Below, one piece after another: positions 3,811 through 64,000 of a stretch of 64,000 nt of DNA; within the stretch, counting starts at the first letter, position 1, and every line of letters begins with the position of its first letter. Both the position numbers and the translations under genes were made by a program. The DNA comes from a virus, in the IMG/VR virus record IMGVR_UViG_3300029134_000184. The stretch is one strand, 5' to 3'. Under the pieces are notes generated by a model. It was not told where the DNA came from and searched no databases. It saw only the letters and a list, made by a program, of their open reading frames with translations.

Positions 3811-3835
3811 AATAGAGAAAAGAGGAGATAAAAAA

Positions 3836-5164: not shown

Positions 5165-5401
5165 ATGGAAATAACAAAAGCTAAGAATTTTGACACGAAT
5201 GGTGTTGCAGAATTTGAAAGTGTTGACGAGGAGACACATGAAGTAACACCTGATATGAAATATATCAAATGGCCAAGCAAGAAAAAAGTCTTTTCTGAAT
5301 TGGTCTCTGTCGCAGTAGCATCCATTATTATTGCAATGGTTATTGCAGCCGGTGACAGTATCGGTATGACGATTGTAAATTTTGTTTTGAAATTCTTCTA
5401 A
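5165..5401 (+). CDS. secE: SecE-like translocase subunit
   Basis: 78 aa. C-terminal KYIKWPSKKKVFSELVSVAVASIIIAMVIAAGDSIGMTIVNFV aligns with the SecE core (B. subtilis KKVSWPKGKELTRYTITVISTVIFFVIFFALLD). Immediately downstream of secY with RBS AAGGAGGGG. Confidence 0.6.
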   Translation: MEITKAKNFDTNGVAEFESVDEETHEVTPDMKYIKWPSKKKVFSELVSVAVASIIIAMVIAAGDSIGMTIVNFVLKFF

Positions 5402-5536: not shown

Positions 5537-6340
5537 ATGGGAGAGAAACAACAGCCAAAATCTTGTATTTATCCAAAGCCTGAGCATTATAACGACCTGG
5601 CAGATAAGCCGATAACGAAAGATGGAATAATGGACAATGCCATTGAAATCATTTATATCTGTGCTTATAAAGCTGAAAGATTCGTCAACAAGCAATATGT
5701 GGGGGTGTCGGTTGAAAGCCGTGAAGACATCATCCAGTATGTAGCTGGCCAGATTAAGGATTTGATTGAAAACTATCTTGACAAAATTGACGAAAAAAGG
5801 GTTGATTTTTGGGCTTATATGAACAAAAGCATTCAGTATACCGCAAGCAGAGCTTATCAGACTGAAGTTAAAGATGGTGCGTCCGAATACATTCGGCACC
5901 GATACGACATGATGTCCAAATATCTCGATGAAGGGTTAACGCTGGAAGAGATTGCAGAGAAGTGTAACTGCAGGGTGTCTACGGTAAGGAAAACCCTTAG
6001 GGATGGAAAGGCAATAAATGTGAGTATCGACGCGGAGGACGATATCGGACATGCCATTCTTGATAAAGTAGGTAAAAATGATGTGTATAAGATTGAAGAA
6101 GAGGAAAAAGTATCAATCGAAGATAACATCTTAATCCGAAAGGTTCTTAAAGGTATGACAAGGGAAGAAAAGTTCATTATAGAAACTTACCTTAATATCA
6201 AAAAGGACTGTGAAAAAGAATGGAAAGACAGAACGTTTGCAGCTTGTAAGGAGTATGGCATTACTCATAAAAAAGTGAATGATGCAATCAGAAGCTTTAA
6301 AAATGAGGCCAGAAAAATGCGTAATGAGCCTTCTGGATAA
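5537..6340 (+). CDS. putative sigma-70-family (region 2/region 4) transcription factor
   Basis: C-terminal HTH LTLEEIAEKCNCRVSTVRKTL resembles sigma region 4. An upstream helical region resembles region 2. Preceded by the element-specific promoter motif at ~5476. Confidence 0.4.
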   Translation: MGEKQQPKSCIYPKPEHYNDLADKPITKDGIMDNAIEIIYICAYKAERFVNKQYVGVSVESREDIIQYVAGQIKDLIENYLDKIDEKRVDFWAYMNKSIQYTASRAYQTEVKDGASEYIRHRYDMMSKYLDEGLTLEEIAEKCNCRVSTVRKTLRDGKAINVSIDAEDDIGHAILDKVGKNDVYKIEEEEKVSIEDNILIRKVLKGMTREEKFIIETYLNIKKDCEKEWKDRTFAACKEYGITHKKVNDAIRSFKNEARKMRNEPSG

Positions 6341-6461
6341 TACAAGGTTTTGGCTTGTACAAAAACCTATAACAACACATGAGCAGCGGGGAAAACCTGC
6401 TGTTTATTTTTTGCCTGATTTTGCATATTGAAAACAAATACAAAAACAGGAGGGAAAAATA

Positions 6462-7514
6462 ATGAAAAATTTAAAAAAATCTGTTTTATGCATGCTAATG
6501 GCAGTTGTCATGGTGATGACTGTAACAGCTGCAAGCGTCATTCCGGTTCAGGATGTGTATGCGGCATCTGTGAAGCTGAATAAGACTTCACTTAACCTGT
6601 ACACGAGGACTATGATTCAGCTTACTGTATTAAATACAGGAGCAAAAGCCAAATGGTCATCAAGCAAACCGAAGGTTGCAAGCGTGACAAGTGAAGGTTA
6701 TGTCACTGCCCGCTCTGCAGGAAAAGCAAAGATTACCGCAGTTGTTGGCAAAAAAAAGCTGTACTGCAATGTCACCGTCAATGTTAAACCTGGCGAAGAA
6801 GTGAAGATGGAGTTTAAAGATTGTAAAGTTCAGGTTGGAAAAACTACACGTCTCCGCCTGATGAACATTGTCGGCCTCGCTTCATGGAAAAGTAGCAATA
6901 CAAAAATTGCTACTGTAGACGCGAATGGAGATGTAACAGGAAGAAAAACCGGTTCTGCGACAATCACTGCTACATATCACTGCAAAAGATATACTGCAAA
7001 AGTGACTGTTATATCCGGTACAACGTCTGGAACGTCAGTTATCAGAAGGAAAGCTCCTTTGGCTGACAGCGGTGTGCTGAATGCGTTTGACAAGCTTGGC
7101 TTTAAATATGCTTATGACCCGAATATTACTGGGTTCACAGGCAAATTTTCAGCAAAAGAGCATCGCATCATTGTAAGACGCGAAGAAGATGACTGTATCT
7201 ATCATGAGCTTGGTCATTTTGTAGCATGGGTAGCTGGCGATGTTGACTACAAGAAAGAATGGAAAGCGATTTATGACAAAGAGAAAAGCAAAGTTACATA
7301 TTTCAATAAAGGTTATGCAACACAAAATCCTAAGGAATATTTCGCAGATGCATATAAGGATTATATCCTGCATCGTTCTTCACTGTCTTCAACAAGACCT
7401 TTGACATACAAGTATGTTAAGGCTGCAGTCTCAAAAGTCAATGCAATGACGAGTACTAACTTTGAAAGAATGCATAAGCTGTATGACTCTATGTGGAATA
7501 AATATGGTGCTTAA
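6462..7514 (+). CDS. secreted protein: signal peptide, two Big_2 Ig-like domains, C-terminal HExxH zinc metalloprotease (anthrax lethal factor / PPEP-like)
   Basis: Signal peptide MKNLKKSVLCMLMAVVMVMTVTAASV. Two repeats of the Big_2 pattern (KPKVASVTSEGYVTARSAGKAKITA..). YHELGHFVAW plus downstream EYFADAY is typical of the ATLF-like family. Confidence 0.7.
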   Translation: MKNLKKSVLCMLMAVVMVMTVTAASVIPVQDVYAASVKLNKTSLNLYTRTMIQLTVLNTGAKAKWSSSKPKVASVTSEGYVTARSAGKAKITAVVGKKKLYCNVTVNVKPGEEVKMEFKDCKVQVGKTTRLRLMNIVGLASWKSSNTKIATVDANGDVTGRKTGSATITATYHCKRYTAKVTVISGTTSGTSVIRRKAPLADSGVLNAFDKLGFKYAYDPNITGFTGKFSAKEHRIIVRREEDDCIYHELGHFVAWVAGDVDYKKEWKAIYDKEKSKVTYFNKGYATQNPKEYFADAYKDYILHRSSLSSTRPLTYKYVKAAVSKVNAMTSTNFERMHKLYDSMWNKYGA

Positions 7515-7608
7515 ATTTCTTCAGCAGGCTTCGGCCTGCTTTTTTCGTTTTTGGAAAATTTAGCATATTAAATACGTAAATGTTAAAACCAAGAAAGGAG
7601 ATTTTCAA

Positions 7609-8580
7609 ATGAAGATTAAAGAAATCAAAACAAACGGAATTGGAACTGTTGAGGGTGTTGTCATTGCTTTAGAAGAAAAGGCAAATAAAAATAACAGCAG
7701 CTTTATCAACATGACTGTCAGTGATGGCGAAACTCAGGTTGTCGCCAAGGTATGGAACGCAGACCTTGAAACGTTTAAATTTAAAACAGGGCAGGCGGTT
7801 CTTGTGGAATTAAAAATGGAGGAGTATAAAGGACAGAAAAGTTATGTCGCCCGTGAAATTACGGCATCTTCTGCTGACCCGGCACTGTTTATCTGCGGCG
7901 CTCCGGTAAAATCAGAAGAGATGTATAACTTCCTCTATAAAACCGCTGGAAGATGCGGCGTGTATGCGTCAACGGTCAAGAAGATTCTTGATGACAATAA
8001 AGACCATCTGATGTTCTGGGGCGCTGGCAAAGCAGTGCATCATAATATCAGAGGCGGTCTTTTATATCATACATACCGTATGACAAAAACGGCGGCATAT
8101 ATCACCTCTGTATATAACAAAGAGCCGTCAATGCTGAAAGGCTGTCGTGACATCAACACAGAACTTCTTGTTGCCGGCTGTATCCTGCATGACATCGGAA
8201 AACTTTGGGAGCTTGATACAAATGAATTTGGTGCTTCAGATTATACCGTGAAGGGAAACCTGATGGGGCATTCATTTATTGGCGCCGAGCTTGCGGGCAA
8301 GACCGCCAGAGAGCTTGGTGTAGATGAGGAAAATGTGATGCTTCTGCAGCATGTAATCCTGTCTCATCATGGAAAATATGAATGGGGTGCTGTCACCCTT
8401 CCGGCAATCCCGGAAGCTATGATTTTGCATCATATTGATATGATTGATGCCGATATGTATCAGTTTGAATCACAGGCAGAAGCCTTAAAACCAGGTGAAG
8501 CGACAAGCAATCTGATTTTTGGCTTAGACCAGAAAGTTTATAGACCGACATGGAGGGTTCCGGTGGAAGAAAAGAAGTAA
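7609..8580 (+). CDS. yhaM: YhaM-like 3'-5' exoribonuclease (N-terminal OB fold + HD phosphohydrolase domain)
   Basis: OB-fold N-terminus, then the HD motif (ILHDIGK ... LSHHGKYEWG ... HHIDMIDA). Confidence 0.7.
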   Translation: MKIKEIKTNGIGTVEGVVIALEEKANKNNSSFINMTVSDGETQVVAKVWNADLETFKFKTGQAVLVELKMEEYKGQKSYVAREITASSADPALFICGAPVKSEEMYNFLYKTAGRCGVYASTVKKILDDNKDHLMFWGAGKAVHHNIRGGLLYHTYRMTKTAAYITSVYNKEPSMLKGCRDINTELLVAGCILHDIGKLWELDTNEFGASDYTVKGNLMGHSFIGAELAGKTARELGVDEENVMLLQHVILSHHGKYEWGAVTLPAIPEAMILHHIDMIDADMYQFESQAEALKPGEATSNLIFGLDQKVYRPTWRVPVEEKK

Positions 8581-10932: not shown

Positions 10933-11865
10933 CTAATTCTTTAAACTATTCTGAACCCTTTTAACATAAGCAGCTATATGCGGGGCTGTCTGCTCAAGAC
11001 CGTCCGGGTCTTCCAAGCTTAACCTGAAAGCCTCTGCAAAATATTCTGCATTATTGCATATATTCTCATCTTCCAAGTCGTATTTCTGTTGTAAGGCTGT
11101 TGCCTCCGATTCGTGTGATTGGGTGACTACGTTAGAGTCAGAACGCCCGGTAGCTGATACCTGGAAATCTACCGCATGTCCGAGCTCGTGGTAGATGGTA
11201 TCTTTAAGGCTTACGGCATCACATCTGAGATACATTTTCCTTTCATCAATTCCTCCTCCAGATTGTATGTATGTCAGGCCATTGACAACCATTCCTTCAT
11301 CCATGTCAGCGGTTGACTCACCTTCCAGATAAGCGGCGGGATTGTTGCACATACAGATTTCATAACTTTGTAAAATCTGAATGTATTGGTCATCAAGCGT
11401 ATTGAAGATATCTGTGGCAAGTCCGATATACAGATTGCATGCATCGGTTTCACCAAAGATGTTGAAATTGTATTTCTGCGTTTTGCACAAATACCCATTG
11501 TATACGTATCCGAGATTCGTGTAAGACCATTCATCTCCATCATTTCCAAGTATGCTTATTGATTCGCCCTTTTTGTATGTTCCGACAATCGGGCTGTTCG
11601 CATCGGCTGACTGATGGATGTTGAGGTCAGTGACCGTGTAACAGATACCCTCCGGCGGGTCTGGCTTTGTGTTGTAAAGCGATAGGTCTTCAACCGGTGC
11701 GGGCGTTTGTTCGGTTGTCTGTTCCGGTGCTGCCGGCTGCTCCTCAACTATCTGCTGCCCGGAGTCTGAAATTCTCAGGTCTGGCAGGTCTGCCGTTGCA
11801 AATGCCGGTATATTAGTTGTTAAAATTGCTGCTGTTAAAGCAGCAAGTGTAAGTATCTTTTTCAT
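10933..11865 (-). CDS. secreted HExxH zinc metalloprotease (anthrax lethal factor / Pro-Pro endopeptidase-like)
   Basis: Signal peptide MKKILTLAALTAAILTTNIPAFA. TIYHELGHAVDF ... NAEYFAEAF. Paralogue of the C-terminal domain of 6462..7514. RBS AAAAGGAGG. Confidence 0.7.
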   Translation of the reverse strand: MKKILTLAALTAAILTTNIPAFATADLPDLRISDSGQQIVEEQPAAPEQTTEQTPAPVEDLSLYNTKPDPPEGICYTVTDLNIHQSADANSPIVGTYKKGESISILGNDGDEWSYTNLGYVYNGYLCKTQKYNFNIFGETDACNLYIGLATDIFNTLDDQYIQILQSYEICMCNNPAAYLEGESTADMDEGMVVNGLTYIQSGGGIDERKMYLRCDAVSLKDTIYHELGHAVDFQVSATGRSDSNVVTQSHESEATALQQKYDLEDENICNNAEYFAEAFRLSLEDPDGLEQTAPHIAAYVKRVQNSLKN

Positions 11866-11966
11866 TTCTTTCCTCCTTTTGCTGCATATACAATATGCAA
11901 AAAATCCGCAAAAATTTGACAATTTTAAAAACGGCTGTTAAATTAAAAGAAAAAGGAGGTAAGAAT

Positions 11967-12419
11967 ATGTGTCGTGCCGTTTCGTATAATGCAGATGCCT
12001 GCTGCAGAAAGCTATATTCATCTTACAGCTCCGCAAATACACCGAGAAGAGCAAAAATAAGCCTTAAAGAAAGCCATATAATGATTCGCGCCCTGCAGGT
12101 AAAAATAGCAAGAAAAGAAGACAAAAAATATTCCCTTGATGAAAAGGTCGTGCCGTTCATCGGGTTTGAGGAAGCAGAGTTTGTGAAATCCATGAAAAGG
12201 TCAAAGATAGATAAAAAAATAGTTTTGGAGGCAAGAAAAAAAAGTACAAAAAATGAAGAGATAAAAAGGTTATGCTCCGCCTTGACAAAACTGCAGAATC
12301 AGCCTGATTGCAGTTATGAATTATGTACGGCATTGTATGATGCCCGGCTGATGATGGGGTCGCTGCAGAGAAGACTGAAAGATGATGAAGATAAAGATGA
12401 AGATATACCGTTTAACTAG
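11967..12419 (+). CDS. hypothetical protein
   Basis: ORF with RBS AAAGGAGG. Basic N-terminus, acidic C-terminus. Confidence 0.45.
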   Translation: MCRAVSYNADACCRKLYSSYSSANTPRRAKISLKESHIMIRALQVKIARKEDKKYSLDEKVVPFIGFEEAEFVKSMKRSKIDKKIVLEARKKSTKNEEIKRLCSALTKLQNQPDCSYELCTALYDARLMMGSLQRRLKDDEDKDEDIPFN

Positions 12420-12496
12420 GCGCCGGATTTTCCGGCGTTATTTTTTTTGCAAAAATCCGGCATATTGGAAGTGTAAAAATTTTTTGAGAAATTTGC

Positions 12497-12660
12497 CGTC
12501 GCATCCTTGTGACTTTGATAACTCATCGGCTACGCCGAATTCGTTACCAGATTTCAATAGTCATGAGTTAGACGGCTCTGCTTTTTAAATACATAAAAAT
12601 ATCGTTTATGCTTGCTCTGGTAACGAGTCGGCAACGGCGAGTTATCACGACGTTTTATTT
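12497..12660. repeat. intergenic long imperfect hairpin element (copy A of a repeat family)
   Basis: Left arm GATAACTCATCGGCTACGCCGAATTCGTTACC pairs with right arm GGTAACGAGTCGGCAACGGCGAGTTATC. The ~95-bp core is repeated at 39357..39446 with 3 mismatches. Related arms at 26765..26830 and 42368..42400. Confidence 0.5.
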
Positions 12661-12740
12661 CTCTACATTTCGGTGTAGAGAAATTTTTTATTTTCACAAA
12701 TTTTTTTTTGCAAAAAACCGTCCCATTCCTAATTTTTTCA

Positions 12741-12755
12741 GCATATTAAATATGC
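12741..12755 (+). promoter_or_regulatory. element-specific promoter motif (perfect palindrome GCATATTAAATATGC)
   Basis: One of >45 copies of GCATATTRWATRT located 25-45 nt upstream of start codons. Confidence 0.5.
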
Positions 12756-12797
12756 AAGAAATTTAAATACAAATTTTTACAAAAGGAGGTGTCTTGT

Positions 12798-14168
12798 ATG
12801 GAAATCACTTCAAGTTATCAAATAGAAATCTTATCAAATACGGATATGAAAAACACAGTGCAGATTTACCGCAAGGCACTTGCTTTTGTTATCGATGTAT
12901 GTGATAAAGAATGGGGAAACATTTCTGTTCTCGGTGGCACAAAAGAAAAAGACCACTATGTGGAGAAATTAATCCATCCAACCAAAAGCAATCCAAACCC
13001 TAAATATCCATTTGATATCAAGGGGTCAGAGTTTTATAAATTTCCATCATATCTCAAAAGAGCGGTTATTGCTGAAGCAATCGGTGCTGTAAGCAGCTAC
13101 CACAGTAATTATAAGAACTGGGAAGATAATGGAAAGAAGGGAAAGGCTCCAGCGTTACAGGTAGACAGGCATGCAATGCCGGTGTTCTACAACCAGAACA
13201 TGTACAAGGAAGACGCACCTAAAAATGCCAAATATCCAAAAGACATGAATCCAGGCGACAGCAATATCAGATGGTTAAAGTTATATCAGAATAACGACTG
13301 GGTGTGGGTTCCTGTCAGATTAAGAAAAACTGATATTAATTATATCAATAAATACTGGGGAGCATGTGAAGATAAAAGCGCCCCGGCCTTAGAAAAAATA
13401 CATAACAAATACTACCTGAGATTTTCTTTTACGGAAACCGTAATTTTAAGCGATACACCTATTGCAGAACAGATTATCTGTGCAGTAGACCTTGGAATCA
13501 ATACGGACGCAGTATGCAGCATAATGAAAGCAGATGGAACTATCCTTGCAAGAAAGTTTATCGATTTTACAAGTGACAAAGACCGGATGATTCATGCTAT
13601 GAACAGAACACGCCGTAAGCAGTCCAAGTATGGGCCAAAAAGTGCCAAAAGCCTTTGGGCTTATGTAAAACGCTTAAACGAAGACCGTGCAAAGAAAATA
13701 TCAGCGGCAATCGTAGAATTTGCATCCCAGCATTCCGTAGATGCTATCGTAATGGAGCATCTGGACTTCAAGGGATGCAAGAAACGGGGCAGTAAGGCGC
13801 AGAGATTGTCTATGTGGAATCACGGAATCATCCGTGAGAAGGTAGAGCAAAAAGCGCACCTCCTCGGTATAAGGATTGCGACAATCTGTGCATGGAAAAC
13901 AAGCGCTCTTGCTTTTGATGGAAGTGGAAGCGTTGCCAGAGATGATAATAACCATGCACTTGCAGCGTTCACGACAGGTAAACAGTATAACTGCGACCTG
14001 AGCGCCAGCTACAATATCGGCGCCAGATATTTTATCCGTGAACTCCTTAAATCTCTTCCGGCGACGGAAGAGTCCCGCGTAAAGGCAAAAGTTCCTGACG
14101 CTGGGCGTAGAACCTCCTGTACATTATCAACACTGCGGGCGCTTGTAAAAGAGCTTTCCGCAGCATAG
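12798..14168 (+). CDS. TnpB-like RuvC nuclease with degenerate (cysteine-less) zinc-finger region
   Basis: RuvC-I ICAVDLGINTDAV, RuvC-II AIVMEHLDFKG, RuvC-III YNCDLSASYNIGARYF. The TSQTCxxCG zinc-finger position reads TSALAFDGSG with no Cys pairs. Confidence 0.7.
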   Translation: MEITSSYQIEILSNTDMKNTVQIYRKALAFVIDVCDKEWGNISVLGGTKEKDHYVEKLIHPTKSNPNPKYPFDIKGSEFYKFPSYLKRAVIAEAIGAVSSYHSNYKNWEDNGKKGKAPALQVDRHAMPVFYNQNMYKEDAPKNAKYPKDMNPGDSNIRWLKLYQNNDWVWVPVRLRKTDINYINKYWGACEDKSAPALEKIHNKYYLRFSFTETVILSDTPIAEQIICAVDLGINTDAVCSIMKADGTILARKFIDFTSDKDRMIHAMNRTRRKQSKYGPKSAKSLWAYVKRLNEDRAKKISAAIVEFASQHSVDAIVMEHLDFKGCKKRGSKAQRLSMWNHGIIREKVEQKAHLLGIRIATICAWKTSALAFDGSGSVARDDNNHALAAFTTGKQYNCDLSASYNIGARYFIRELLKSLPATEESRVKAKVPDAGRRTSCTLSTLRALVKELSAA

Positions 14169-15825: not shown

Positions 15826-18800
15826 ATGGATATTAGAACAGAAGAAAGATATGAAGACGATTTTAATCAGGGCAATTTATTCATCATGAAACGTTCAGGA
15901 GAAAGAGTCCCGTTTGATGAAAGTAAAATCGTGAGGGCTATTGAAAAGGCAAATGCCGAGGTAACAATCCCTCTTGAAAAGATGAGTGAGGAAAAGATTG
16001 AAGAAATTGCAGCTCAGATTAAGCGTGATGCAGAAAATGCAGGCAGAGACCTGTCAGTGGAGGAAATCCAGGATAAAGTGGAAGACTCACTGATGATTGC
16101 CGGATACTGCACGCTGGCAAGATTATATATCACTTACAGATATAAACATAACCTTGACAGAAAGAAATCTACACTTGATAAGAAGATTGAAAGCCTTATC
16201 AATGTGAAAGTTAACAAAGACGGCAGCGTAAGCGGCAGCAATGAGGAGGTAAACCAGGAAAACAGCAATAAGGACACAAAAGTACTTTCAGTACAGCGTG
16301 ACTATATGGCTGGTGAGTGGTCAAGGGAGTATACAAGTAGAAACCTGCTTCCGGAAGATGTGGTGAATGCACACCGAAGCGGTCTGATTCATGTACATGA
16401 TACGGATTATATGGCCCAGCCGGAAGGAAACTGCTGTCTCATTAATCTTGAAGACATGCTGCAGAATGAAACCTGTATTTCTGGTACTAAGATTGAAAGG
16501 CCGAAGTCATTCATGACTGCTTCAACCGTTGCAAGCCAAATTATCGCTCAGGTTGCCAGCAGCCAGTATGGCGGTCAGACAATCAGCCTGGCACATCTCG
16601 CTCCGTTCGTTGACATATCAAGACAGAAGATTTTAAAGAGGCTGTCAAAAGAAATGTCCGATATTGGCATTGAAGTAACCGAAGAAAAATTAAAAGAACT
16701 CGCTGAAAAAGAAGTAAGAAAAGAAGTTGAGAATGGCTGTCAGACATTGCAGTATCAACTTATCACTTTACAGACAACAAATGGACAGGCTCCTTTTGTG
16801 ACTGTGTTCATGTATCTGAATGAGGCAAAAAATGAGAGGGAAAAAGAAGACCTGGCGCTTTTGATTGAAGTAATGTTTAAACAGAGAATGCTTGGCGTTA
16901 AGGATAGCAGTGGTTATTATATCACTCCGGCTTTCCCGAAACTGATTTACTGCCTGCAGGAAGATAATATCAGTGAAGATGGTAAATACTGGTATCTGAC
17001 AGAGCTTGCAGCAAAATGTACTGCCAAGAGAATGGTTCCGGATTATATTTCTGAAAAGAAGATGCTGGAGCTTAAAGGGGATGTGTACCCCAGCATGGGA
17101 TGCGTTGATGGAAAAGAAGTTGTAACATATAAATACAACGGAAAAGTCTATGTTGAAGCATTTGAAAGAATGTGGAATAGATTAGGAAAATACTTTGAAA
17201 TCAATCTGCAGGAAAATGGAAAAGACTATGTGATGAAAACCCCTGGCGTTATGATTTATGACCAGTGTAAGGGATTCGTTGATAACTACGGAATTATCAA
17301 AAACCATAATTCCGAATGGCTGCGGATAAGTTTCTCTAACGGAAGGACTATTACTTGTACTAAAGACCATCCATTTGAGACTTGTGACAATCGGGTTGTA
17401 TATGCAAAAGATTTGAAAGAATCAGATTTGATTGCAATTGATAAAACATCCGATTTTGCACCTGAATACACTTATTCCATGAAGACAAATCGTGCATGGC
17501 TTTATGGCTTTACGTTATGTGATTCTACTTATTATGACAGCATCATTGCCTCAATTGCACAGGATGGTGAACAGGAAATCAAAGATATGTTTGTCAATAC
17601 TATCAAAAGCGAATATGGACTTGATGTAACAGATACGGAGAGACACAGAGGAGTTAGAGGTAATTATATTGACTTACTTGTTAATTCTGATGGTACTAAT
17701 ACATACCGTAATCTCAGACTTGATTTGGCATGCTCTTTTGAGGGTAAAGCTAAAAACGACAGGCATATTCCAAATGAAGTTTTTTCCTGGACAAAAGAAG
17801 CAAAGCTTGCATTTTTGGCAGGAATGATTGATGCTGACGGTTATCTTAGTACACATATGAAAAAGGCAAAAATGCTAATTGGCTCAACAAACAAGGAGCT
17901 TGCCATTCAGCAGATGCTTTTAGCACAGTCTTGCGGAATGTTTGCTGTGATTTATCCGAATCGTTATAAAACAAACAGAAGGGATAAAATCAGATATCGT
18001 GTTGAATTCACACCAACTGAAGAGCTGCTGACATTTATCCAGTGTGAGAAGAAAGTAGCTCTGCATGATTCAATCCTTGGAAATACAAATGCAAGCATCG
18101 CGTCTGAGTCAACATGTCATATTACAAAAGTTGAAGAGATAAATGAAGAAGGCTTTAGTTATGATGTTACAACCGCAAGCGAACATTTTACAGTTTCAGG
18201 ACTTTATAGTCATAACTGCAGAAGTTTCCTTACTCCTGACAGATGCAGCGAGAAGGTTGGAAATATCGCTCATGCCCTTAATTATGAAGAGGGTAAGCAT
18301 AAATATTACGGCCGCTTCAATCAGGGTGTTGTAACAATCAATCTTATTGATGTTGCATGCTCATCAGAAGGCGATGAGGACAGGTTCTGGAAAATCCTTG
18401 AAGAGAGACTTAACTTATGCCATAAAGCACTTCGTGCAAAACATGAAAGGCTGCTTGGAACACCGTCAGATGTGGCACCGATTCAGTGGCAGTACGGAGC
18501 ACTTGCAAGGTTAAAACCTGGCGAAGTAATTGACCCGCTGCTGTTCAACGGATATTCAACTATTTCTCTTGGATATGCCGGTTTGGCTGAATGCGTGTAC
18601 TTCATGAAGCATGAATCTCATACTTCTGAAAACGGAAAAGAGTTTGGCTTGAAAGTTATGCAGGCGCTGAATGATGCCTGTGGTAAATGGAAAACAGAAG
18701 AAAATATTGATTATTCTGTATATGGTACCCCGTTGGAATCGACAACGTATAAATTTGCAAAATGTCTGCAGAAACGTTTTGGTAAAATCCCGGGAGTGAC

Positions 18801-19284
18801 AGACAAGAATTATATTACAAATTCCTATCATATCAGAGTAACAGAAAATATCAATGCTTTTGACAAGCTGACAAAAGAAGCAGAGTTCCAGAAACTGTCT
18901 CCTGGCGGGGCAATCTCATATGTTGAGGTGCCTAATATGCAGGGAAACATTCCGGCGGTTCTTGCAATCATCAAACATATCTACAATACAATTCTTTATG
19001 CTGAACTGAATACAAAGTCAGACCAGTGTGAGGCTTGTGGATATAATGGAGAAATCCAGATTGTGAACAAAGACGGCAAGCTGATTTGGCGCTGCCCGCA
19101 GTGCGGATGTACAGACCAGAACAAGATGCACGTTGCCAGAAGGACTTGTGGATATATCGGAACGCAGTATTGGAACCAGGGAAGGACTCAGGAAATCGCA
19201 GAACGTGTATTACACGTATCTGTTGATGAAGATGAATCTGAACAGAAACCAGTAAAAATACTGCCAAAATGTGTTGTTGCTTAA
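15826..19284 (+). CDS. nrdD: anaerobic ribonucleoside-triphosphate reductase NrdD (class III), interrupted by an intein
   Basis: ATP-cone N-terminus. C-terminal zinc ribbon CEACGY...CPQCGC and glycyl-radical motif RTCGYIG. The extein junction PSMG|C...SHN|CRSFL matches the conserved NrdD MGCRSFL block. Confidence 0.9.
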   Translation: MDIRTEERYEDDFNQGNLFIMKRSGERVPFDESKIVRAIEKANAEVTIPLEKMSEEKIEEIAAQIKRDAENAGRDLSVEEIQDKVEDSLMIAGYCTLARLYITYRYKHNLDRKKSTLDKKIESLINVKVNKDGSVSGSNEEVNQENSNKDTKVLSVQRDYMAGEWSREYTSRNLLPEDVVNAHRSGLIHVHDTDYMAQPEGNCCLINLEDMLQNETCISGTKIERPKSFMTASTVASQIIAQVASSQYGGQTISLAHLAPFVDISRQKILKRLSKEMSDIGIEVTEEKLKELAEKEVRKEVENGCQTLQYQLITLQTTNGQAPFVTVFMYLNEAKNEREKEDLALLIEVMFKQRMLGVKDSSGYYITPAFPKLIYCLQEDNISEDGKYWYLTELAAKCTAKRMVPDYISEKKMLELKGDVYPSMGCVDGKEVVTYKYNGKVYVEAFERMWNRLGKYFEINLQENGKDYVMKTPGVMIYDQCKGFVDNYGIIKNHNSEWLRISFSNGRTITCTKDHPFETCDNRVVYAKDLKESDLIAIDKTSDFAPEYTYSMKTNRAWLYGFTLCDSTYYDSIIASIAQDGEQEIKDMFVNTIKSEYGLDVTDTERHRGVRGNYIDLLVNSDGTNTYRNLRLDLACSFEGKAKNDRHIPNEVFSWTKEAKLAFLAGMIDADGYLSTHMKKAKMLIGSTNKELAIQQMLLAQSCGMFAVIYPNRYKTNRRDKIRYRVEFTPTEELLTFIQCEKKVALHDSILGNTNASIASESTCHITKVEEINEEGFSYDVTTASEHFTVSGLYSHNCRSFLTPDRCSEKVGNIAHALNYEEGKHKYYGRFNQGVVTINLIDVACSSEGDEDRFWKILEERLNLCHKALRAKHERLLGTPSDVAPIQWQYGALARLKPGEVIDPLLFNGYSTISLGYAGLAECVYFMKHESHTSENGKEFGLKVMQALNDACGKWKTEENIDYSVYGTPLESTTYKFAKCLQKRFGKIPGVTDKNYITNSYHIRVTENINAFDKLTKEAEFQKLSPGGAISYVEVPNMQGNIPAVLAIIKHIYNTILYAELNTKSDQCEACGYNGEIQIVNKDGKLIWRCPQCGCTDQNKMHVARRTCGYIGTQYWNQGRTQEIAERVLHVSVDEDESEQKPVKILPKCVVA
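17101..18216 (+). mobile_element. intein with LAGLIDADG homing-endonuclease domain inside nrdD
   Basis: Begins with Cys (CVDGKEVV) and ends SHN before extein Cys. Two LAGLIDADG blocks (LYGFTLCDSTYY, LAGMIDADGYLS). Confidence 0.8.
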
Positions 19285-20451: not shown

Positions 20452-21639
20452 ATGCTTGAATTAAAAGGAAAATACAATACCGCAAAGGTTTTTACTGACA
20501 ATGTCGACAACGAGACCATCAGCCAGGTAATAGAACTGCTGAATCAGGACTATATCAAAGACGCGAAAATCAGAATCATGCCTGACTGCCATGCGGGCGC
20601 CGGATGCGTCATTGGGACGACAATGACAATTTCTGATAAAGTATGCCCGAATCTGGTTGGTGTAGATATTGGCTGCGGCATGCTGGCTGTCAGGATTGCA
20701 GAGAAAGACGTTGACCTTCCAAAACTGGATGATGTAATTAATGCATACGTTCCGGCTGGGTTCAACGTTAATGAAGAACCGCTTGGCAATTTCAGCCATT
20801 TGAAGGACTTGGTCGCTCCGGCTGATATATCGCTGGCTTATTGCAGCATTGGAAGACTGGGAGGCGGCAATCATTTTATCGAACTTGATAAAGATGATGA
20901 CGGAAACTTGTGGCTTGTAATCCATACTGGTTCCAGACATCTCGGACTGGAAGTTGCGAAACACTACCAAGAGCTCGCATACAAACAGCTGAAAGATTCA
21001 GATGTTGGCGATAAAATCAAGGCTGTAATTGCAGACCCGAAAGCAAAAGGAAGGAAAAAAGAAATTGAAAAAACAATCCAGGCGTTAAAGATGCACGAGC
21101 CGCATATTCCGAAATCCTTATGCTATGTTTCCGGCCAGGCATTCAAAGACTACATCCACGATATGGAAATTGTCCAGAAGCATGCAGAGTTAAACAGAAA
21201 ATATATTGCCGATACAATCATTGAGAAGATGGGCTGGCATATTTGCGAAGAATTCCAGACAATACACAATTACATTGATACAAAAAATTTGATTCTTCGC
21301 AAAGGTTCCGTGTCTGCACGAGATGGCGAAAAACTGATAATCCCGATAAATATGCGTGACGGGTCTTTGATTTGTATTGGAAAAGGCAATCCTGATTGGA
21401 ATTATTCTGCACCGCATGGTGCCGGAAGGATTTTGTCAAGAAGCGAAGCGAAAGATGCTGTTGGGATTGATGAGTTTCGTGAGTCCATGAAAGGAATATA
21501 TTCTTCTTCTGTAATGGAGTCTACGATAGATGAGTCGCCGATGGTGTATAAGCCGATGGAAGAAATTATGGAAAACATTAAAGACACTGTAGACATTGTG
21601 AAAGTAATTAAACCGGTATACAATTTTAAAGCACATTAG
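20452..21639 (+). CDS. rtcB: RtcB RNA 3'-phosphate ligase
   Basis: RtcB motifs RIMPDCHAGAGCVIG, GVDIGCGM, GGGNHFIEL. Phage promoter motif at 20400..20413. Confidence 0.9.
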   Translation: MLELKGKYNTAKVFTDNVDNETISQVIELLNQDYIKDAKIRIMPDCHAGAGCVIGTTMTISDKVCPNLVGVDIGCGMLAVRIAEKDVDLPKLDDVINAYVPAGFNVNEEPLGNFSHLKDLVAPADISLAYCSIGRLGGGNHFIELDKDDDGNLWLVIHTGSRHLGLEVAKHYQELAYKQLKDSDVGDKIKAVIADPKAKGRKKEIEKTIQALKMHEPHIPKSLCYVSGQAFKDYIHDMEIVQKHAELNRKYIADTIIEKMGWHICEEFQTIHNYIDTKNLILRKGSVSARDGEKLIIPINMRDGSLICIGKGNPDWNYSAPHGAGRILSRSEAKDAVGIDEFRESMKGIYSSSVMESTIDESPMVYKPMEEIMENIKDTVDIVKVIKPVYNFKAH

Positions 21640-34996: not shown

Positions 34997-35434
34997 ATGC
35001 GTAAAAAAATATTATTACTGACACTTACATTATCCGCAGTAGTGATGACATCCGGCTGCGGCTGCGGTAAGCCAAAAACAGTTGAGGAGGATATCGTAGC
35101 TGAAAGCGAGAAAAAAGATACAGTTGATATAACGGCTGACCCAACCGATTCGCCGACACCGACAATTAAGACGGAGGATGACTTTACGGAAGAGGATTTC
35201 AAAAACACGGAATATGTCACCATAGATAACGTAAACGTGAGGGCAAACCCGGATGCAAATTCTGACATCATCAGCAGCATGGAAAAAGGGTCACGGGTTA
35301 AGGTATCCGGACGAAAAGAGGATAAAGAAGGCAATAAATGGTACAAAGTATCTGCTGATGATTCGGGCACGATTGGATACATGTCGACGAAATATGTTAA
35401 CATTGTCCATAAGAAAGGAGATACAGCAAAATGA
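34997..35434 (+). CDS. lipoprotein with SH3b-like domain
   Basis: Signal/lipobox LSAVVMTSGCGCG. C-terminal VNVRANPDANSDIISSMEKGSRVKVSG..WYKV resembles the bacterial SH3. Confidence 0.55.
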   Translation: MRKKILLLTLTLSAVVMTSGCGCGKPKTVEEDIVAESEKKDTVDITADPTDSPTPTIKTEDDFTEEDFKNTEYVTIDNVNVRANPDANSDIISSMEKGSRVKVSGRKEDKEGNKWYKVSADDSGTIGYMSTKYVNIVHKKGDTAK

Positions 35435-37203
35435 GAAAAGGCAAAGACCCAAACAAGAAGCCACCGACAAAAAGACAGAAGATTATCTGGACTTCATTCA
35501 TCGTAATCTGTGTTTTGATGATAGCGGTAATGATATGCGGAGTTTTCGGGCTTAAGAAAGCAAAGCTATTTAAAGATAGTGCCAAGGAAGTTAAATATGA
35601 AAAATTCCTTGAAATGATTGATGACAAAAAAGTCAAAGACATCAAATGGTCAGAGGATGAAGAGACCATCACTTTCAGCGACAAGAAAGATAAGTCTTAT
35701 ACAACAGCCAATCCGAAATATGAAGACTTTAAAAAAGATATGCTTGAGAAAGGCATTGAAGTGAAAGAGACAAATGGCCTTGGAAAATACGAAACACCGA
35801 TTATGATGGGCGTGCAGATGCTGATGTATATCATTCTCTTCGCGATTATGATTAAATGTACCGGCATGGGCTCATTAATCTCCCCGAAAGAGGCAAAAGA
35901 AGCAGAAAGTAATGTCAAGTTTAAAGATGTTGCCGGTCTGGAAGAGGTCAAGGAAGACCTGATGACAGTAGTTGATTTCTTAAAGAATCCTGATAAATAT
36001 AAAGAAGCCGGAGCTGAGATTCCGAAAGGTATTCTCCTTTATGGCCCTCCAGGCACTGGAAAAACACTCCTCGCAAAGGCTGTTGCCGGTGAGGCTGGTG
36101 TAAAATTCAAAGCCGTTTCCGGTTCTGACTTTGATGAAAAATATGTAGGCGTTGGAGCCAGCAAGATGAGAAAGCTTTTTGATGACGCAAAATCAAATGC
36201 GCCATGCATCATTTTCATTGACGAGATTGATTCAATGGGAGGAAAGAGACATTCAAAACAGAGCAATTATGACAGACAGACATTAAATACACTGTTATCT
36301 GAAATGGATGGCTTTGATGGAAGTAATGGCGTAGTTGTTATCGCTGCAACAAACAGACTTGAAGACCTTGATTCAGCACTTACCAGACCGGGAAGATTTG
36401 ACAGCCATTTTGCAGTAAGTCTGCCGGCGACAGCAAAAGAGAGAAAGCTTATCATCAACCTGTATGCAGAAAACAAGAAATTTGCAGAAGACGTTGATAT
36501 GGAAGCGTTTGCAAAAGAAACTATTGGAAACAGCCCGGCATCAATCAAGACTACATTAAACGAAGCGGCAATCATTGCAGCGAGAAGAAATAATGGTATT
36601 ATCAACCGTGAAATCCTTGATGAAGCATGGATGAAACAGCTGATGGAAGGACACTTAAAGAAGAATGCCGATAAAGACAATATTGAACTTGTCGCATGGC
36701 ATGAAGCAGGACACGCCCTGGCTGGTCTCCTGATGGGACAGGATTTAACAAAGGCTTCAATCATTCCGTCAACTTCCGGAGCAGGTGGAGCTACATTTAT
36801 CACCCCGAAGAAGCTTGGCCTGTTTACCGTTGATGATTTGAGAGAGCAGGTGGTTATGCTGTATGCCGGAAGAAATGCTGAACGGCTTTTTGCAGCAGAG
36901 AACAATATGACAGAAAACGGCGTCACAACAGGAGCTTCAAATGACATTGAGAAAGCGACAGGTATCATCAAAAAGATGATTACCGAATACGGAATGAGTA
37001 AAAAATTCGGTCTGCTTAACCTTGAAGAGCTTGATGTAAAACCTGATGTGATTACCGAAGAGGCAGTTAAGCTTGCTGAAGAATTAAATGAAGAATCTTT
37101 CAACCTAATGAAGGACAATGCAGACAAGCTTAAAAAGATTGCTGAAAAACTCGTAGAAAAAGAAACTTTAACAGGAAAGGAGATAAAGGAGATTGCAGGA
37201 TAA
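35431..37203 (+). CDS. ftsH: FtsH-like membrane-anchored AAA+ zinc metalloprotease
   Basis: N-terminal TM. Walker [31 protein letters not shown], zinc site HEAGHAL. Confidence 0.85.
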
Positions 37204-56086: not shown

Positions 56087-56395
56087 ATGAAAAAGACAAT
56101 GTATTCTGCAATGAAAAACCTAGCGGAATATATTGCTGCAAGCCAGTCGTCTGACTTTGATGGAATATGGGATGAATGGAGCAGCAAATATAAACCGGAA
56201 GATTATATGGAATTACCGCTTAGGAAAATGGGAATGCAGTTATGTCAAATAGACAAAGCTGAGATAAAGAGTGTGCCAGAAAGAAGCTATAGAGACACAA
56301 TTAAAAAGACGTTAAAACCTGGAATTAATAAGGAGGAGTTCGAAAATGAGCGAGAAGAATACTTCAAATCAGCAAGATACGACGAAGCAGAATGA
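56087..56395 (+). CDS. hypothetical protein
   Basis: Two promoter motifs upstream (56020, 56032). RBS AAGGAGG. Confidence 0.45.
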   Translation: MKKTMYSAMKNLAEYIAASQSSDFDGIWDEWSSKYKPEDYMELPLRKMGMQLCQIDKAEIKSVPERSYRDTIKKTLKPGINKEEFENEREEYFKSARYDEAE

Positions 56396-57359
56396 AAAAT
56401 ATGATGTTGTATATAATAAAAATTCAGGATACAGCCAGAGCGAAGTTACGAAACTGATAAAAATATATCATATGGCGATGGCAGCCGGAGATAATGTAAC
56501 CGTGCAGGATGCTTATACAAAAATATACTTTTTTATTGCAAAGTATGTATATAAAACACTGTGGGGCAATTACCATACATTAATGCAGAACAAGTACCAC
56601 CGTGAAGATATAGTCCAGGACGTGTGGGTAAAAATTTTTAATGAGCTGAAAAACTTTGACCCGGACAAGGGTGCCCTCACTACTTTTATTACTCCGTGGA
56701 TAAAGCACGTTGTGTCAGATTATGCAAGCAAAAACTTCAGAAAGACTTCAGTTTATTATGCGAATGCTATGACGAAGATAAATGGAGCCCAGAACTATTG
56801 CAAACAGTATGGTTTAAATTCAGATGATATTGAGACAATCATGAGTCTGACAGGATTGTCAGAAGCGACAGTAAAAAATACTCTTGATATTATGTCTAAA
56901 AAAGACAGCGTCTCATATGAAGCCTTAATTGATGCCGGTGCTGATTATGTTACACAGATTAAAGGGCCTGAGGAGTCAGTAATTGAAGCAGAATCAGAAC
57001 GTAACCTTGGGGAGCTTCTCAGGGATGTGTTAACTGATGAAGAACTGCAATTGTTATCACTACTGCTTAATCCGGAAAACGCAAACAAAAAGCATTCAAG
57101 CTACCGTGAAATCGCTGAACAGATTCCGGGAAGTAATATTCCTAAAATCAAGAGAAAGATTTCAAGGATAACTACAAAACTTAAAAACAATGAAAGATTT
57201 GCCCAGATGTATCCATACATTATCGCGCAGGAAAAAGCGCTTGAGGATAATTATATTCCAGTGCTGGATGATACAGATGAGGTTGATGAAATGTATGAAA
57301 ATTTTGACGATATTGATGTAAATGATGGCTGGAGCAAGGCAAAAAAGAAAAAGAAATAA
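56346..57359 (+). CDS. sigma-70-family factor (region 2 and region 4)
   Basis: DIVQDVWVKIFNELKNFDPDKGALTTFITPWIKHVVSDYASKNFRK (region 2-like). Region-4-like HTH SYREIAEQIPGSNIPKIKRKISRITTKLK. Confidence 0.55.
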   Translation: MSEKNTSNQQDTTKQNEKYDVVYNKNSGYSQSEVTKLIKIYHMAMAAGDNVTVQDAYTKIYFFIAKYVYKTLWGNYHTLMQNKYHREDIVQDVWVKIFNELKNFDPDKGALTTFITPWIKHVVSDYASKNFRKTSVYYANAMTKINGAQNYCKQYGLNSDDIETIMSLTGLSEATVKNTLDIMSKKDSVSYEALIDAGADYVTQIKGPEESVIEAESERNLGELLRDVLTDEELQLLSLLLNPENANKKHSSYREIAEQIPGSNIPKIKRKISRITTKLKNNERFAQMYPYIIAQEKALEDNYIPVLDDTDEVDEMYENFDDIDVNDGWSKAKKKKK

Positions 57360-61861: not shown

Positions 61862-62584
61862 ATGGCTAAAAATAATACTTTATATATCGTAATGCCGGCA
61901 TACAACGAAGAAGAAAATATCAGGGATGTTGTGGCGTCATGGTATCCAAAATTAGAGCTTGCTGGAGCAAATTCCAGGCTCGTCGTAGCTGATAGCGGCA
62001 GCAGTGATAAGACACACGAGATTCTTGTTGAGATGAAAAACGAATACCCGCAGCTGGAAATCCTTGAAGAAACAGACAGACAGCATGGGCCAAAAGTTAT
62101 TGCCCTGTATGATTACGCTATCAAAAACGGTGCTGGCTATATCTTCCAGACTGATTCTGATGGACAGACAAAGCCTGAACAGTTTGACCGGTTCTGGGAT
62201 ATCCGTGAGCAATACGATGCCGTGATTGGGCACAGAACAAGAAGAGAGGATGGAAGAAGCCGTGCTTTCGTAGAGAAGGTGGTATGCATGATGCTTAAAA
62301 TGTATTTCGGTGTTAAGGTGCCGGATGCAAATGCACCGTTCAGACTGATGAAAGCCGATGTTGTAAAAAAATATCTTTACAATATGGAGCCGGATTTCAA
62401 TCTGCCTAACATTATGATGACAACATTTTTCGTATATTACGGCGAAAATGTTAAATTTAAGCCAATCGCGTTCAAACCGAGGGAAAAAGGTACTAATTCA
62501 ATAAACATCAAAAAAATTATCAAAATTGGATGGAAAGCACAAAAAGATTTCAGAAAATTTAAGAAAAAAATGGCTGAAGAATAA
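61862..62584 (+). CDS. family-2 glycosyltransferase (DPM1-like)
   Basis: LYIVMPAYNEEENI N-terminal GT2 motif and DSDGQ (DxD-like). Confidence 0.7.
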   Translation: MAKNNTLYIVMPAYNEEENIRDVVASWYPKLELAGANSRLVVADSGSSDKTHEILVEMKNEYPQLEILEETDRQHGPKVIALYDYAIKNGAGYIFQTDSDGQTKPEQFDRFWDIREQYDAVIGHRTRREDGRSRAFVEKVVCMMLKMYFGVKVPDANAPFRLMKADVVKKYLYNMEPDFNLPNIMMTTFFVYYGENVKFKPIAFKPREKGTNSINIKKIIKIGWKAQKDFRKFKKKMAEE

Positions 62585-62627
62585 TTTAAAAAAACGTTAC
62601 ACTTTTTAAATTATTTTGCATATTGAA

Positions 62628-62642
62628 TGCGTAACAAAAAAT
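62628..62642 (+). promoter_or_regulatory. element-specific promoter motif GCATATTGAATGCGT driving the ORF-free 3' region
   Basis: Preceded by the TTTTTAAATTATTTT upstream element, like other copies. Confidence 0.45.
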
Positions 62643-62644
62643 GA

Positions 62645-64000
62645 GATTAACGAAGAACGGGAAACATCCGGCTGACGATAAATTGTCTGATGGTTAAACG
62701 TTCCGGTTTTAGCTTCGTATGCGGGTCTGAATCCCGTTCGGGGCTTCTTGATAGCGACTCCGGCAGAACCGGGGCATAAGACTACAAAGAACAAAAAGCA
62801 GTAAACGCCGTGAGGTGATTGCTGTGTAACTATCAACTCCGTAATCCCTACATAGAGATTACGATGTGGCGTTGATGTGTTGTACAAAGAAGCAGTGTAC
62901 GAAAGGATGCCTGTGGAAATGCATCGCGTCAAACTGAATATAGAGGTGTCACCCCTACCAAGGGGGCGCTCAGAGATACAAAACAGTGAGTTTGTTCGGC
63001 ACTGGATGCAGATAAGGTGAAGCGGGGTATGAACCCTGCGATTAGTTGACATTGAGACGGAACAGAAAACGGAACCGGTATAGGATACGGTAGCCCCAAT
63101 TGTTCCAGACCTGCAATCTGAAGCGTGATGAGAACGAGACATATGCCGCAGTAATGCGGAGCAAGCGCCGGGGCTTAGGTGTGTCGGCTGGCTAAAAAAA
63201 CGTTAAGTGTTGCATTGCGGAAACAGTATTGCAGGGAGCTTAGAAAACCGGCTTTGGTCTTGGGCTGGTGGCTTCCAAAGAGGGTGTGGAGCGTTTCAGG
63301 CCCTCAGCCTAAGGCGTAGTTGTATGCGCTAACGGTACAAGTTGTTGTACTGGTTAAATGTAGGACGCGGGGGAGTACGTGAGTAATCCAAGAGTCCTTA
63401 ATACTTAACTTAACTTTGATTTGAATAATATATAATAATAACGTAATAACTTACATAGCTTAGATTACAGGCACGAATGCACAGTCAGCTTTAGAGCTGA
63501 CGAGAACGGATGCTTGACGAAAACGTCATGATGTGAGGGATGTGCAATAAGGTTCAGCCTTAGACCACGTCAGGTGATGGCAGAGATGCTTAAACCGTGC
63601 ATCTGGTTATATTCAGGTATAACACTATCAAGACCGCAGATGAGCGATGGCCCGACGTAGACGGACTACATCTTATCTGACATAGTTTCTTTCTTCTTCC
63701 GCGTGGACGCCCCGCTATAGGGGTAGTCTGCGCCTGATGCAAAGGAGAAACTATGCCAATTCGCTCCGGCACCTCAGTTCCGGACTGCATCACCGCGAAC
63801 GAAACTTTATTGGTAAGATTGAGATTTACTGGCTCAAGAAGTATATTGGCAGCCAATGCCACGAAAGGTGATGAAGGCAGGAACGAAAGAACGGGATGTA
63901 GTACAACTACCAGTACATAAAATGGTATTGGAAAGCCGGAGCGAAATCGCGAAATGATGTAGTACAGTAAAGGCTTTATAAATCTTAGGTGATACCGTGA
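62645..64000 (+). ncRNA. large structured non-coding RNA candidate (>1.3 kb, continues past window end)
   Basis: No credible ORF on either strand. GC noticeably higher than the flanks. Dense local stem-forming segments (e.g. GCGGGTCTGAATCCCGTTCGGGGC, GACGCCCCGCTATAGGGGTAGTC). Promoter motif directly upstream. Confidence 0.4.

Follow-up and report, generated by a model that had tools for sequence, protein, structure and literature searches.

The last 1.4 kb of the DNA considered here—a stretch of 64,000 nucleotides (nt) filed as IMG/VR virus record IMGVR_UViG_3300029134_000184, hereafter the window—very probably holds a stand-alone gene whose product is a large, structured non-coding RNA (ncRNA) with several domains, of a family outside Rfam, most likely one that acts in trans as an architectural RNA. 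As far as the comparison of related sequences can show it, this is a non-coding sequence selected for a specific, many-helix fold of its plus (+) strand. A first reading made from the letters alone (the sequence-only reading) had named the region a large ncRNA candidate, and that proposal is strengthened by conservation in five lineages, compensatory changes, the lack of a conserved open reading frame (ORF), and promoter-like and terminator-like signals of its own. The unit has the characteristics of a large ornate ncRNA of mobile elements: it exceeds 500 nt, is non-coding, contains 31 helices with compensatory changes, and retains invariant blocks in all five lineages.

The region (62585–64000) begins after a GT2 glycosyltransferase (GT) gene (61862–62584, + strand) and is the first 1.4 kb of a gene-free gap. 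On longer contigs with an identical GT protein the full gap measures 2,010 nt (L001:10724–12733), with a DnaN-like gene as its 3′ limit; positions within the gap are numbered here as nc, such that nc 65–189 corresponds to window 62649–62773 and nc 1751–1900 to L001:12474–12623. ORFs of at least 30 amino acids (aa) in 62585–64000 comprise only short ones and two minus (−) strand ORFs of 178 and 90 aa, and no ORF of the region has a Pfam match, even at E up to 1. Because TAA, TAG, and TGA are each frequent in every + frame of the gap, stop-codon recoding opens no + frame, and an alternative genetic code was rejected. The longer − strand ORF is reduced to 72–127 aa in relatives that are 95–99% identical, with indels that are not multiples of three:

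62606–63142, − strand: 178-aa ORF, spurious (Pfam-negative, broken in close relatives)

The sequence-only reading had seen no plausible protein gene here, and that view stands: a check of either strand for a gene with homologues found no conserved ORF and nothing in Pfam. It had also called the region GC-enriched, as indeed it is, with a G+C content of 0.445–0.51 (400-nt windows, 62600–63400) versus ~0.33–0.40 in most upstream windows and ~36% in the surroundings overall; the + strand of the gap holds more G than C.

Homologues fall into five lineages: A (the window, L001–L035, and L164), B (L054–L059), C (L042–L046, L051, and L149–L157), D (L145/L146), and E (phage contig L163). Lineage B contigs were retrieved via divergent DnaN-like proteins; blocks 72–77% identical to the gap are present in these elements, whose DnaN-like protein is only 43% identical, so that nucleotide conservation reaches far past that of the protein; identity between the cores of lineage A and lineages B/C is ~64% overall. 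Lineage C, found by using a spurious − strand ORF (P0022) as a protein query, is ~89% identical to B and aligns without a break over nc 295–1207; spurious − strand ORFs used in this way recovered no RNA lineage besides C. Both lineage D contigs begin within the RNA and run on into ssb. Lineage E is a 12.5-kb contig, found by a signature scan of IMG/VR, that encodes terminase, integrase, ParA, neck, portal, protease, and major capsid proteins; its gene-free gap of 1.44 kb (6163–7604) matches the central domain (nhmmer E = 2.6e-14), and its copy, of ~600 nt, is without the 5′ domain. Conservation in related elements, proposed earlier as a check, is therefore found, and extends to a phage contig. 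The conserved core spans window 62836–63791 (956 nt), and its central and 3′ domains (~600 nt) are held in common with the phage copy. The core is divided as follows:

62836–63116, + strand: 5′ domain, present in lineages A, B, and C and not in phage contig L163
63117–63403, + strand: central domain, the most conserved part of the core
63404–63462, + strand: variable linker, AT-rich (G+C 0.27 in a 100-nt bin), aligning poorly between lineages
63463–63794, + strand: 3′ domain, helices 22–31

The minimum free energy (MFE) of the + strand is −326 kcal/mol (z = −3.1), which agrees with the earlier description of the region as highly structured; the stronger evidence is covariation. A consensus fold was obtained with RNAalifold on a balanced subset of alignment A3, with helices filtered only for pairing and with counts made on all 26 rows. 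It comprises 177 pairs in 31 helices, and 98.5% of cells hold standard pairs, a percentage that is inflated because the structure was derived from the sequences scored; counts of both-side changes are less affected by this. Such changes occur in 39 pairs, versus 4–6 when partners are slid by 1–3 columns, and this is the outcome of the covariation analysis that the sequence-only reading had recommended. The covariation score is 0.216, versus 0.03–0.06 for slid partners, and none of 500 shuffles matches the observed values. Within lineage A, 15 of the 17 variant pair types at paired sites keep pairing, and 2 break it. A covariance model (R1) of the segment designated f-g-invariant scores 69.7–120.9 bits in the five lineages, high by construction because the model was built on these same sources; when the five lineages are realigned on R1, 7 of 16 pairs have changed on both sides, versus 0–4 in slid controls. 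Many of the commonest pairs are G-U or U-G, and since these would be C-A on the opposite strand, the + strand is taken to be the functional one, an assignment that agrees with the promoter motif and with the 3′ hairpins and U tracts of lineages B/C and E. The individual elements of the fold are these:

62841–62849/62854–62862, + strand: helix 1, GUAAUC/GAUUAC in A versus CAGGA/UCCUG in B/C, with 5 of 7 pairs changed on both sides
62875–62881/62918–62924, + strand: helix with four sequence versions
62880–62887, + strand: invariant palindrome UUGUACAA of the 5′ domain
62925–62930/63364–63369, + strand: long-range helix of CGCGUC with invariant GACGCG, 98.7% paired
~62971–63121, + strand: lineage-A-specific insertion, closed by helices 62946–62950/63138–63142 and 62966–62970/63122–63126
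63146–63159, + strand: GUAA-capped hairpin, CCGCA-GUAA-UGCGG versus CUGCA-GUAA-UGCAG
63199–63213, + strand: invariant block AACGUUAAGUGUUGC of the central domain, including the invariant palindromic segment AACGUU (63199–63204)
63208–63218/63226–63236, + strand: helix of the central domain, a clear case of covariation
63280–63291/63295–63305, + strand: helix of the central domain
63313–63318/63325–63330, + strand: hairpin with four Watson–Crick versions over the five lineages (GGCGUA/UGCGCU in A, UACGUA/UGCGUA in B/C, UAUAUA/UAUAUA in D, CAAUG/CAUUG in E)
63360–63375, + strand: invariant block GUAGGACGCGGGGGAG of the central domain
63484–63490/63495–63501, + strand: hairpin of the 3′ domain, a clear case of covariation
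63515–63528, + strand: hairpin, tetraloop AAAA in the window and GAAA in relatives
63529–63535/63566–63572 and 63542–63553/63557–63565, + strand: helices, clear cases of covariation
63678–63695/63742–63758, + strand: long helix, CAUAG.../...CUAUG
63703–63708/63726–63731, + strand: hairpin of the 3′ domain

The three long-range helices among these either close the lineage-A insertion or join domains. Helix 3 has changed on both sides in 3 of its 7 pairs and on one side in 2 more, helices 6–8 are 99–100% paired, and helices 22, 25, 26, and 30 of the 3′ domain show 2–4 both-side changes each. The CAUAG/CUAUG helix reads CGUAGC/GCUAUG in L145 and GCGCGUAGU/ACUAUGCGC in L163, and an inverted repeat of the 3′ domain (I5) was detected independently.

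Sequence diversity within lineage A follows the same architecture. Nucleotide diversity (pi) is 0.000 for nc 551–700 and nc 751–800, 0.002 for nc 701–750, and at most 0.052 across the core; purifying selection is strongest in the core. Beyond it lies an extension that has no homology to lineages B–E:

63795–64000, + strand: start of the lineage-A 3′ extension, which continues ~700 nt past the window (to ~L001:12640)

The extension is less constrained than the core (pi 0.02–0.06 within lineage A; fold z = −2.0), and an 11-bp complementarity (I1) joins it with the 3′ end of the core. Diversity rises to a pi of ~0.2 in the hypervariable nc 1751–1900 and is near zero again at the dnaN promoter. 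The hypervariable stretch, which lies past the end of the window (L001:12474–12623), is purine-rich and is tandemly duplicated in L025; many metagenome contigs (L008–L029) begin or stop in it, and L007, L145/L146, and L160/L161 break in or beside the RNA. The properties of the region account for these repeated breaks in short-read assemblies.

At its 5′ end the unit bears a promoter-like motif of the kind found throughout the element, followed by a leader:

62590–62631, + strand: promoter-like motif, with AAACGTTAC at 62592–62600 and TGCATATT at 62617–62624
62632–62835, + strand: lineage-specific 5′ leader, ~200 nt, including an optional module of ~125 nt (62649–62773)

The pattern TGCATATTNAW has 11 copies in the window versus 1.2 expected, a number reached by none of 100 shuffles. 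TGCATATT occurs 17 times, with at least 13 copies immediately upstream of + strand genes, and these gene-upstream copies share an A-rich/CGTTAC box ~20 nt further upstream. The "element promoter" of the sequence-only reading is thus a real, enriched signal, and promoter activity is its likely meaning. The full motif, which lies upstream of most + strand genes, consists of an A-rich tract with CGTTAC or CGAAC, ~20 nt, and then TTT-TGCATATT-(A/G)(A/T)AT(A)TGTAA; examples among the 17 copies are at 6422, 37921, 38734, 45416, 56016, 58731, and 62617. The same motif stands 5′ of the RNA in lineages B and C.

The optional leader module is missing from about half of the close relatives, in which ~23 nt replaces nc 65–189, and its pi within lineage A is 0.43–0.54. 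It measures ~100–125 nt, contains ACGAAGAACGGGAAAC...GGUCUGAAUCC..., and lies behind the promoter motif. Homologues of the module are found at other positions behind the same promoter (L050:7210–7311 and L053:2356–2457, the latter 79% identical; nhmmer E down to 8e-13), one of them upstream of the gene that precedes the coupling-protein gene, and the module has no Rfam match. It may constitute a separate small structured leader or RNA.

The 3′ ends differ by lineage. In B/C, where the upstream gene's terminator precedes the promoter motif (L054:3993–4000) and the motif precedes the first conserved helix by ~40 nt, the conserved sequence ends in a GC-rich hairpin with a U tract, GGCGGCC-UUU-GGCCGCC-UUUC, which would give an RNA of ~0.9 kb. 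In E, a promoter-like GGGACA-17-AATAAT lies just upstream and a GGAUCC...GGAUCC-UUUUUU hairpin follows, for an RNA of ~0.6 kb. The unit thus terminates in a terminator-like hairpin of its own in lineages B, C, and E. Between the 3′ hairpin of L054 and its Band_7/ssb genes lie 600 nt of AT-rich sequence, within which a near-perfect inverted repeat with arms of ~26 nt, ~100 nt apart, occupies 5096–5121 and 5222–5247.

Besides the inflated percentage of paired cells, several points weigh against an ncRNA gene of this architecture. The expression, ends, and abundance of the RNA are those suggested by sequence signals. A simple terminator scan passed over the 3′ hairpins of lineages B/C, because of their short U tract, and of lineage E, because its loop is longer than 8 nt, and these hairpins are for that reason called terminator-like only. 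Lineage A has no terminator between the RNA and dnaN, so that read-through into dnaN is possible there. When the pairs of single-sequence MFE folds are scored on other lineages, the enrichment of compensatory changes is weak, though this comparison is barely informative because an MFE fold of 1 kb contains too many wrong pairs. Each compensatory change represents one or a few events, because there are only about five independent lineages. Finally, the global fold is provisional, because several long-range helices are invariant and the invariant CGCGGGGG block could pair with CGCGUC of the 5′ domain, with CUUCUUCCGCG of the 3′ domain, or, in lineage D, with GCCCGCG.

The position of the unit is not constant. 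Lineage A has it between GT and dnaN, and lineages B/C between the genes for a sigma factor and Band_7; in D it precedes ssb, and in E it separates a ParA module from neck/portal genes. The lineage B copy occupies a 1.84-kb gap (L054:3676–5514) ~5 kb further upstream. In L148, whose DnaN-like protein is 69% identical, the unit is absent: GT is followed by dnaN after 155 nt, a spacer with a terminator and a promoter and nothing else. Neither L060 nor L147 carries a copy within 20 kb, and model R1, applied to related loci without an obvious gap (L039–L053, L060, L147, L148, and L159–L162), found no further copies, its sole extra hit being 15.6-bit noise in L147. Because the flanking genes differ by lineage, a relative without the unit exists, and a phage carries a copy, the comparison indicates that the unit is a movable cassette, gained, lost, and relocated within a syntenic backbone. 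Scans of IMG/VR with degenerate signature patterns returned L163 and L164, two more two-block patterns returned L163 alone, and single 15–17-mers gave chance matches only; an invariant signature by which samples with the carrier may be sought is GGTTAANNGTAGGACGCGGGGG. In L163 itself (2385–4703 and 371–2008), an integrase gene and a ParA-like partition gene lie between the terminase and the neck/portal genes, an island that is unusual cargo within a structural module and to which the RNA belongs.

Comparison with catalogued RNAs does not place the unit. Rfam 15 was searched at gathering score (the whole window, L054, L145, and L157) and at E up to 10 (62400–64000, the L001 gap, and L163): the former returned no match to the region, and the latter only noise far under the thresholds (S774, mir-875, CRISPR-DR60, snoZ266, and similar). 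The same search, as a positive control, does recover a group II intron in L145 (8890–9169 and 11614–11701, at 148.3 and 58.5 bits). The identities offered by the sequence-only reading—GOLLD, ROOL, a HEARO-type RNA, a group I or II intron, RNase P, or tmRNA—were therefore not recovered, none of these Rfam models matching. Candidates set aside individually were GOLLD (RF01998) and ROOL (RF03087), without a covariance-model match; HEARO/IscB omega-RNA (RF02033), without a match and with GT2 and DnaN-like genes as neighbors, the TnpB gene of the window being 61 kb off; OLE (RF01071), without a match and with the locus on a mobile element; group I intron (RF00028), RNase P, tmRNA, and rRNA, without a match; and group II intron, with no domain V or D1–D4 match in lineages A–E, an intergenic position, and no reverse transcriptase (RT) ORF. 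ARAGORN found no tRNA or tmRNA genes nearby.

Some catalogued RNAs resemble the unit in part. GOLLD and ROOL often adjoin tRNA genes. Like the unit described here, they are large bacterial ncRNAs (~0.6–0.8 kb) of many helices, expressed stand-alone and carried for the most part by the mobile DNA of Gram-positive bacteria, phages and prophages included, a mobile lifestyle that the unit shares through its phage copy as well; unlike them, it has no match to their covariance models, no tRNA genes near it, and a conjugative-type element as its main carrier. It resembles ROOL and GOLLD in kind but is a member of neither, nor of any catalogued family. Both of these RNAs self-assemble into homo-oligomers, as seen by cryo-EM (PMC12286853). 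OLE is an ornate RNA of ~600 nt in anaerobic and extremophilic Bacillota, with strongly conserved nucleotides between its helices, and works in a ribonucleoprotein (PMC9723947). Higher-order self-assembly is a property of OLE as well; it is chromosomal and linked to oapA/B/C, whereas the present unit lies on mobile elements with no constant protein-gene neighbor.

The proposed mode of action builds on these likenesses. The + strand would be transcribed from the promoter type of the element's protein genes, with a start near 62632, and in lineage A the transcript would consist of the ~200-nt leader, the core, and the ~700-nt, poorly constrained extension. It would fold into ~30 helices around invariant blocks (GUAGGACGCGGGGGAG, AACGUUAAGUGUUGC, and UUGUACAA) that are single-stranded or paired over long range. 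The unit's varied positions, its absence from a close relative that has both flanking genes, and the phage copy make it most likely that it acts in trans for the mobile element and not on one neighboring gene. By analogy with ROOL, GOLLD, and OLE, it is most likely an architectural RNA that binds a protein or self-assembles, with the capped hairpins and the palindromic segments UUGUACAA and AACGUU as candidate sites of tertiary or intermolecular contact; the two palindromes are the one hint of self-assembly in the sequence.

Bacterial ncRNAs known to exceed 500 nt and to have a complex conserved fold are very few, and those found to date—RNase P, group I and II introns, OLE, GOLLD, and ROOL—are all ribozymes, ribonucleoproteins, or self-assembling particles. 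A further-reaching suggestion, to which we give a modest chance, is that the unit founds a new class of large mobile-element RNA with a biochemical activity of its own, be it as a new ribozyme or as a self-assembling particle like ROOL or GOLLD. In human-gut Bacillota it would pass as a cassette between conjugative elements and phages, and would help these elements to establish themselves or to compete in the host. The RNA is missing from Rfam, GenBank phages, PLSDB, and GTDB species representatives, yet its element is present in hundreds of human-gut assemblies; the present analysis supplies a core of ~600–950 nt, a searchable invariant signature, and a helix map open to direct testing.

Other readings were weighed against a trans-acting architectural RNA. 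The one that survives best, though we consider it improbable, is a new ribozyme—self-cleaving, self-splicing, or other—whose invariant blocks form an active site. The size of the unit, its many helices, its GNRA-type capped hairpins, and its invariant blocks of 14–16 nt joined by long-range helices would all suit such an enzyme, and among the products of the element are RtcB, an RNA ligase, and a nuclease-like OB+HD protein. But RtcB lies ~41 kb distant, no catalytic motif was identified, and no Rfam ribozyme or intron model matches, though the L145 group II intron was detected. Group II introns (RF00029, group-II-D1D4) are alike in size, capped hairpins, and long-range helices, and occur in the same element family; the unit differs from them in its intergenic position, in having its own promoter and terminator-like ends, and in having neither a domain V or D1–D4 match nor an RT ORF. 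An intergenic unit with such ends leaves no exons to join.

There is a slight chance that the region works in cis, as a long 5′ leader or attenuator that controls the downstream gene, which in lineage A is dnaN. There, the RNA and dnaN are co-oriented with no intervening terminator. However, the downstream gene varies among dnaN, Band_7, ssb, and a phage neck gene; a terminator-like hairpin stands right behind the core in B/C and E; dnaN has a promoter motif of its own after the RNA, and in L148 it occurs without the RNA; and a core of 0.6–0.9 kb far exceeds known leaders. Riboswitch, T-box, and attenuator were rejected as candidates, there being no constant class of downstream gene and no riboswitch or T-box match.

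The unit might instead act as DNA, through a fold on the transferred single strand that serves as an oriT or replication origin, an initiation site, or a leading-region single-strand promoter; this we regard as very improbable. The conjugative-type carrier, the proximity of ssb in lineages B–D, and the fact that G-T wobbles can form in single-stranded DNA speak for it. Frpo/ssi single-strand promoters are likewise non-coding, structure-forming, and situated beside ssb in conjugative elements. Such a site consists of one long imperfect hairpin of ~0.3 kb and works at the DNA level, whereas the unit is 0.6–0.9 kb long, GC-rich, and branched into ~30 helices, has a promoter motif and a terminator-like hairpin at its ends, and occurs also in phage L163, on whose 12.5-kb contig no conjugation genes were seen. 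An oriV/oriT-type site was rejected, the region being GC-enriched, with just four two-copy direct repeats of chance size, no tandem arrays, and no AT-rich unwinding region. The packaging or replication structure that the sequence-only reading had offered as an option is unlikely, given the lack of iterons and tandem repeats and a many-branched fold that contains G-U pairs. The separate inverted repeat downstream of the RNA in L054 looks more like a DNA-level site, and would be preferred over the RNA as a candidate oriT or single-strand initiation site. That the region is a decayed or unrecognized coding region, or the mRNA of a small peptide begun at AAGGAG-N6-AUG (63742–63755), has a negligible probability: the Shine–Dalgarno-like box and AUG are kept in A–D and similar in E, and gene callers do annotate − strand ORFs in some lineages (P0021 and P0022), but the ORF behind the AUG is 55, 22, 3, or 9 aa long by lineage, with unrelated sequences, the box and AUG form the 3′ strand of covarying helix 30, and the − strand ORFs are Pfam-negative, with homologues confined to the same RNA lineages and broken in others.

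The element that carries the trans-acting RNA proposed here was identified from its gene content. Every large ORF of the window lies on the + strand, and the products include a sigma-70-family protein (56346–57359) and surface proteins of the BspA-type LRR and DUF285 kinds. Around the RNA the gene order is Band_7, SSB, GT, RNA, DnaN-like, DUF4046, VirD4-type coupling protein, topoisomerase III, and RecD2-like helicase, and the coupling protein shares 32–39% identity with Bacillota plasmid proteins annotated "VirD4-like, CD1115 family"; contigs of the element reach 355 kb. On the basis of this gene content, including the coupling protein, the carrier is a large conjugative-type element of Bacillota type and not a phage. 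The phage or prophage of Firmicutes supposed by the sequence-only reading thus does not describe the window itself, though it does describe the setting of one homologue, on the phage contig L163.

The element is common in human-gut assemblies: 833 indexed assembly blocks contain the GT protein, and the cluster of the DnaN-like protein has 837 member sequences. The DNA has no similarity to GenBank phages or PLSDB plasmids; in PLSDB the DnaN-like protein has merely distant dnaN matches (22–25% identity), and neither this protein nor a 20-base RNA signature was found in GTDB species genomes. The giant "Inocle" elements were not adopted as the carrier, their G+C content being 24–32% and no link to the present element having been found.

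Several further genes of the element deserve mention. The NrdD gene (window 15826–19284; 1,152 aa) encodes an anaerobic ribonucleotide reductase with an intein that bears a LAGLIDADG endonuclease domain. Genes of cellular type encode SecY, FtsH, the RNA ligase RtcB, and an OB-fold+HD RNase-like protein (window 3836–5152, 35431–37203, 20452–21639, and 7609–8580, respectively); RtcB and the OB-fold+HD protein, as enzymes of RNA processing, might have a connection with the RNA. A TnpB (OrfB_IS605/Cas12f-like TNB) gene stands at the start of the window (16–1485), and in the relative L157 a TnpB gene (11503–13104) is inserted directly 3′ of dnaN. The gene for the VirD4-type coupling protein is split by a group II intron with an RT ORF in L145 (8890–11701), L002, L003, L005, and L060, and is uninterrupted in L001 and L004 (849 aa).

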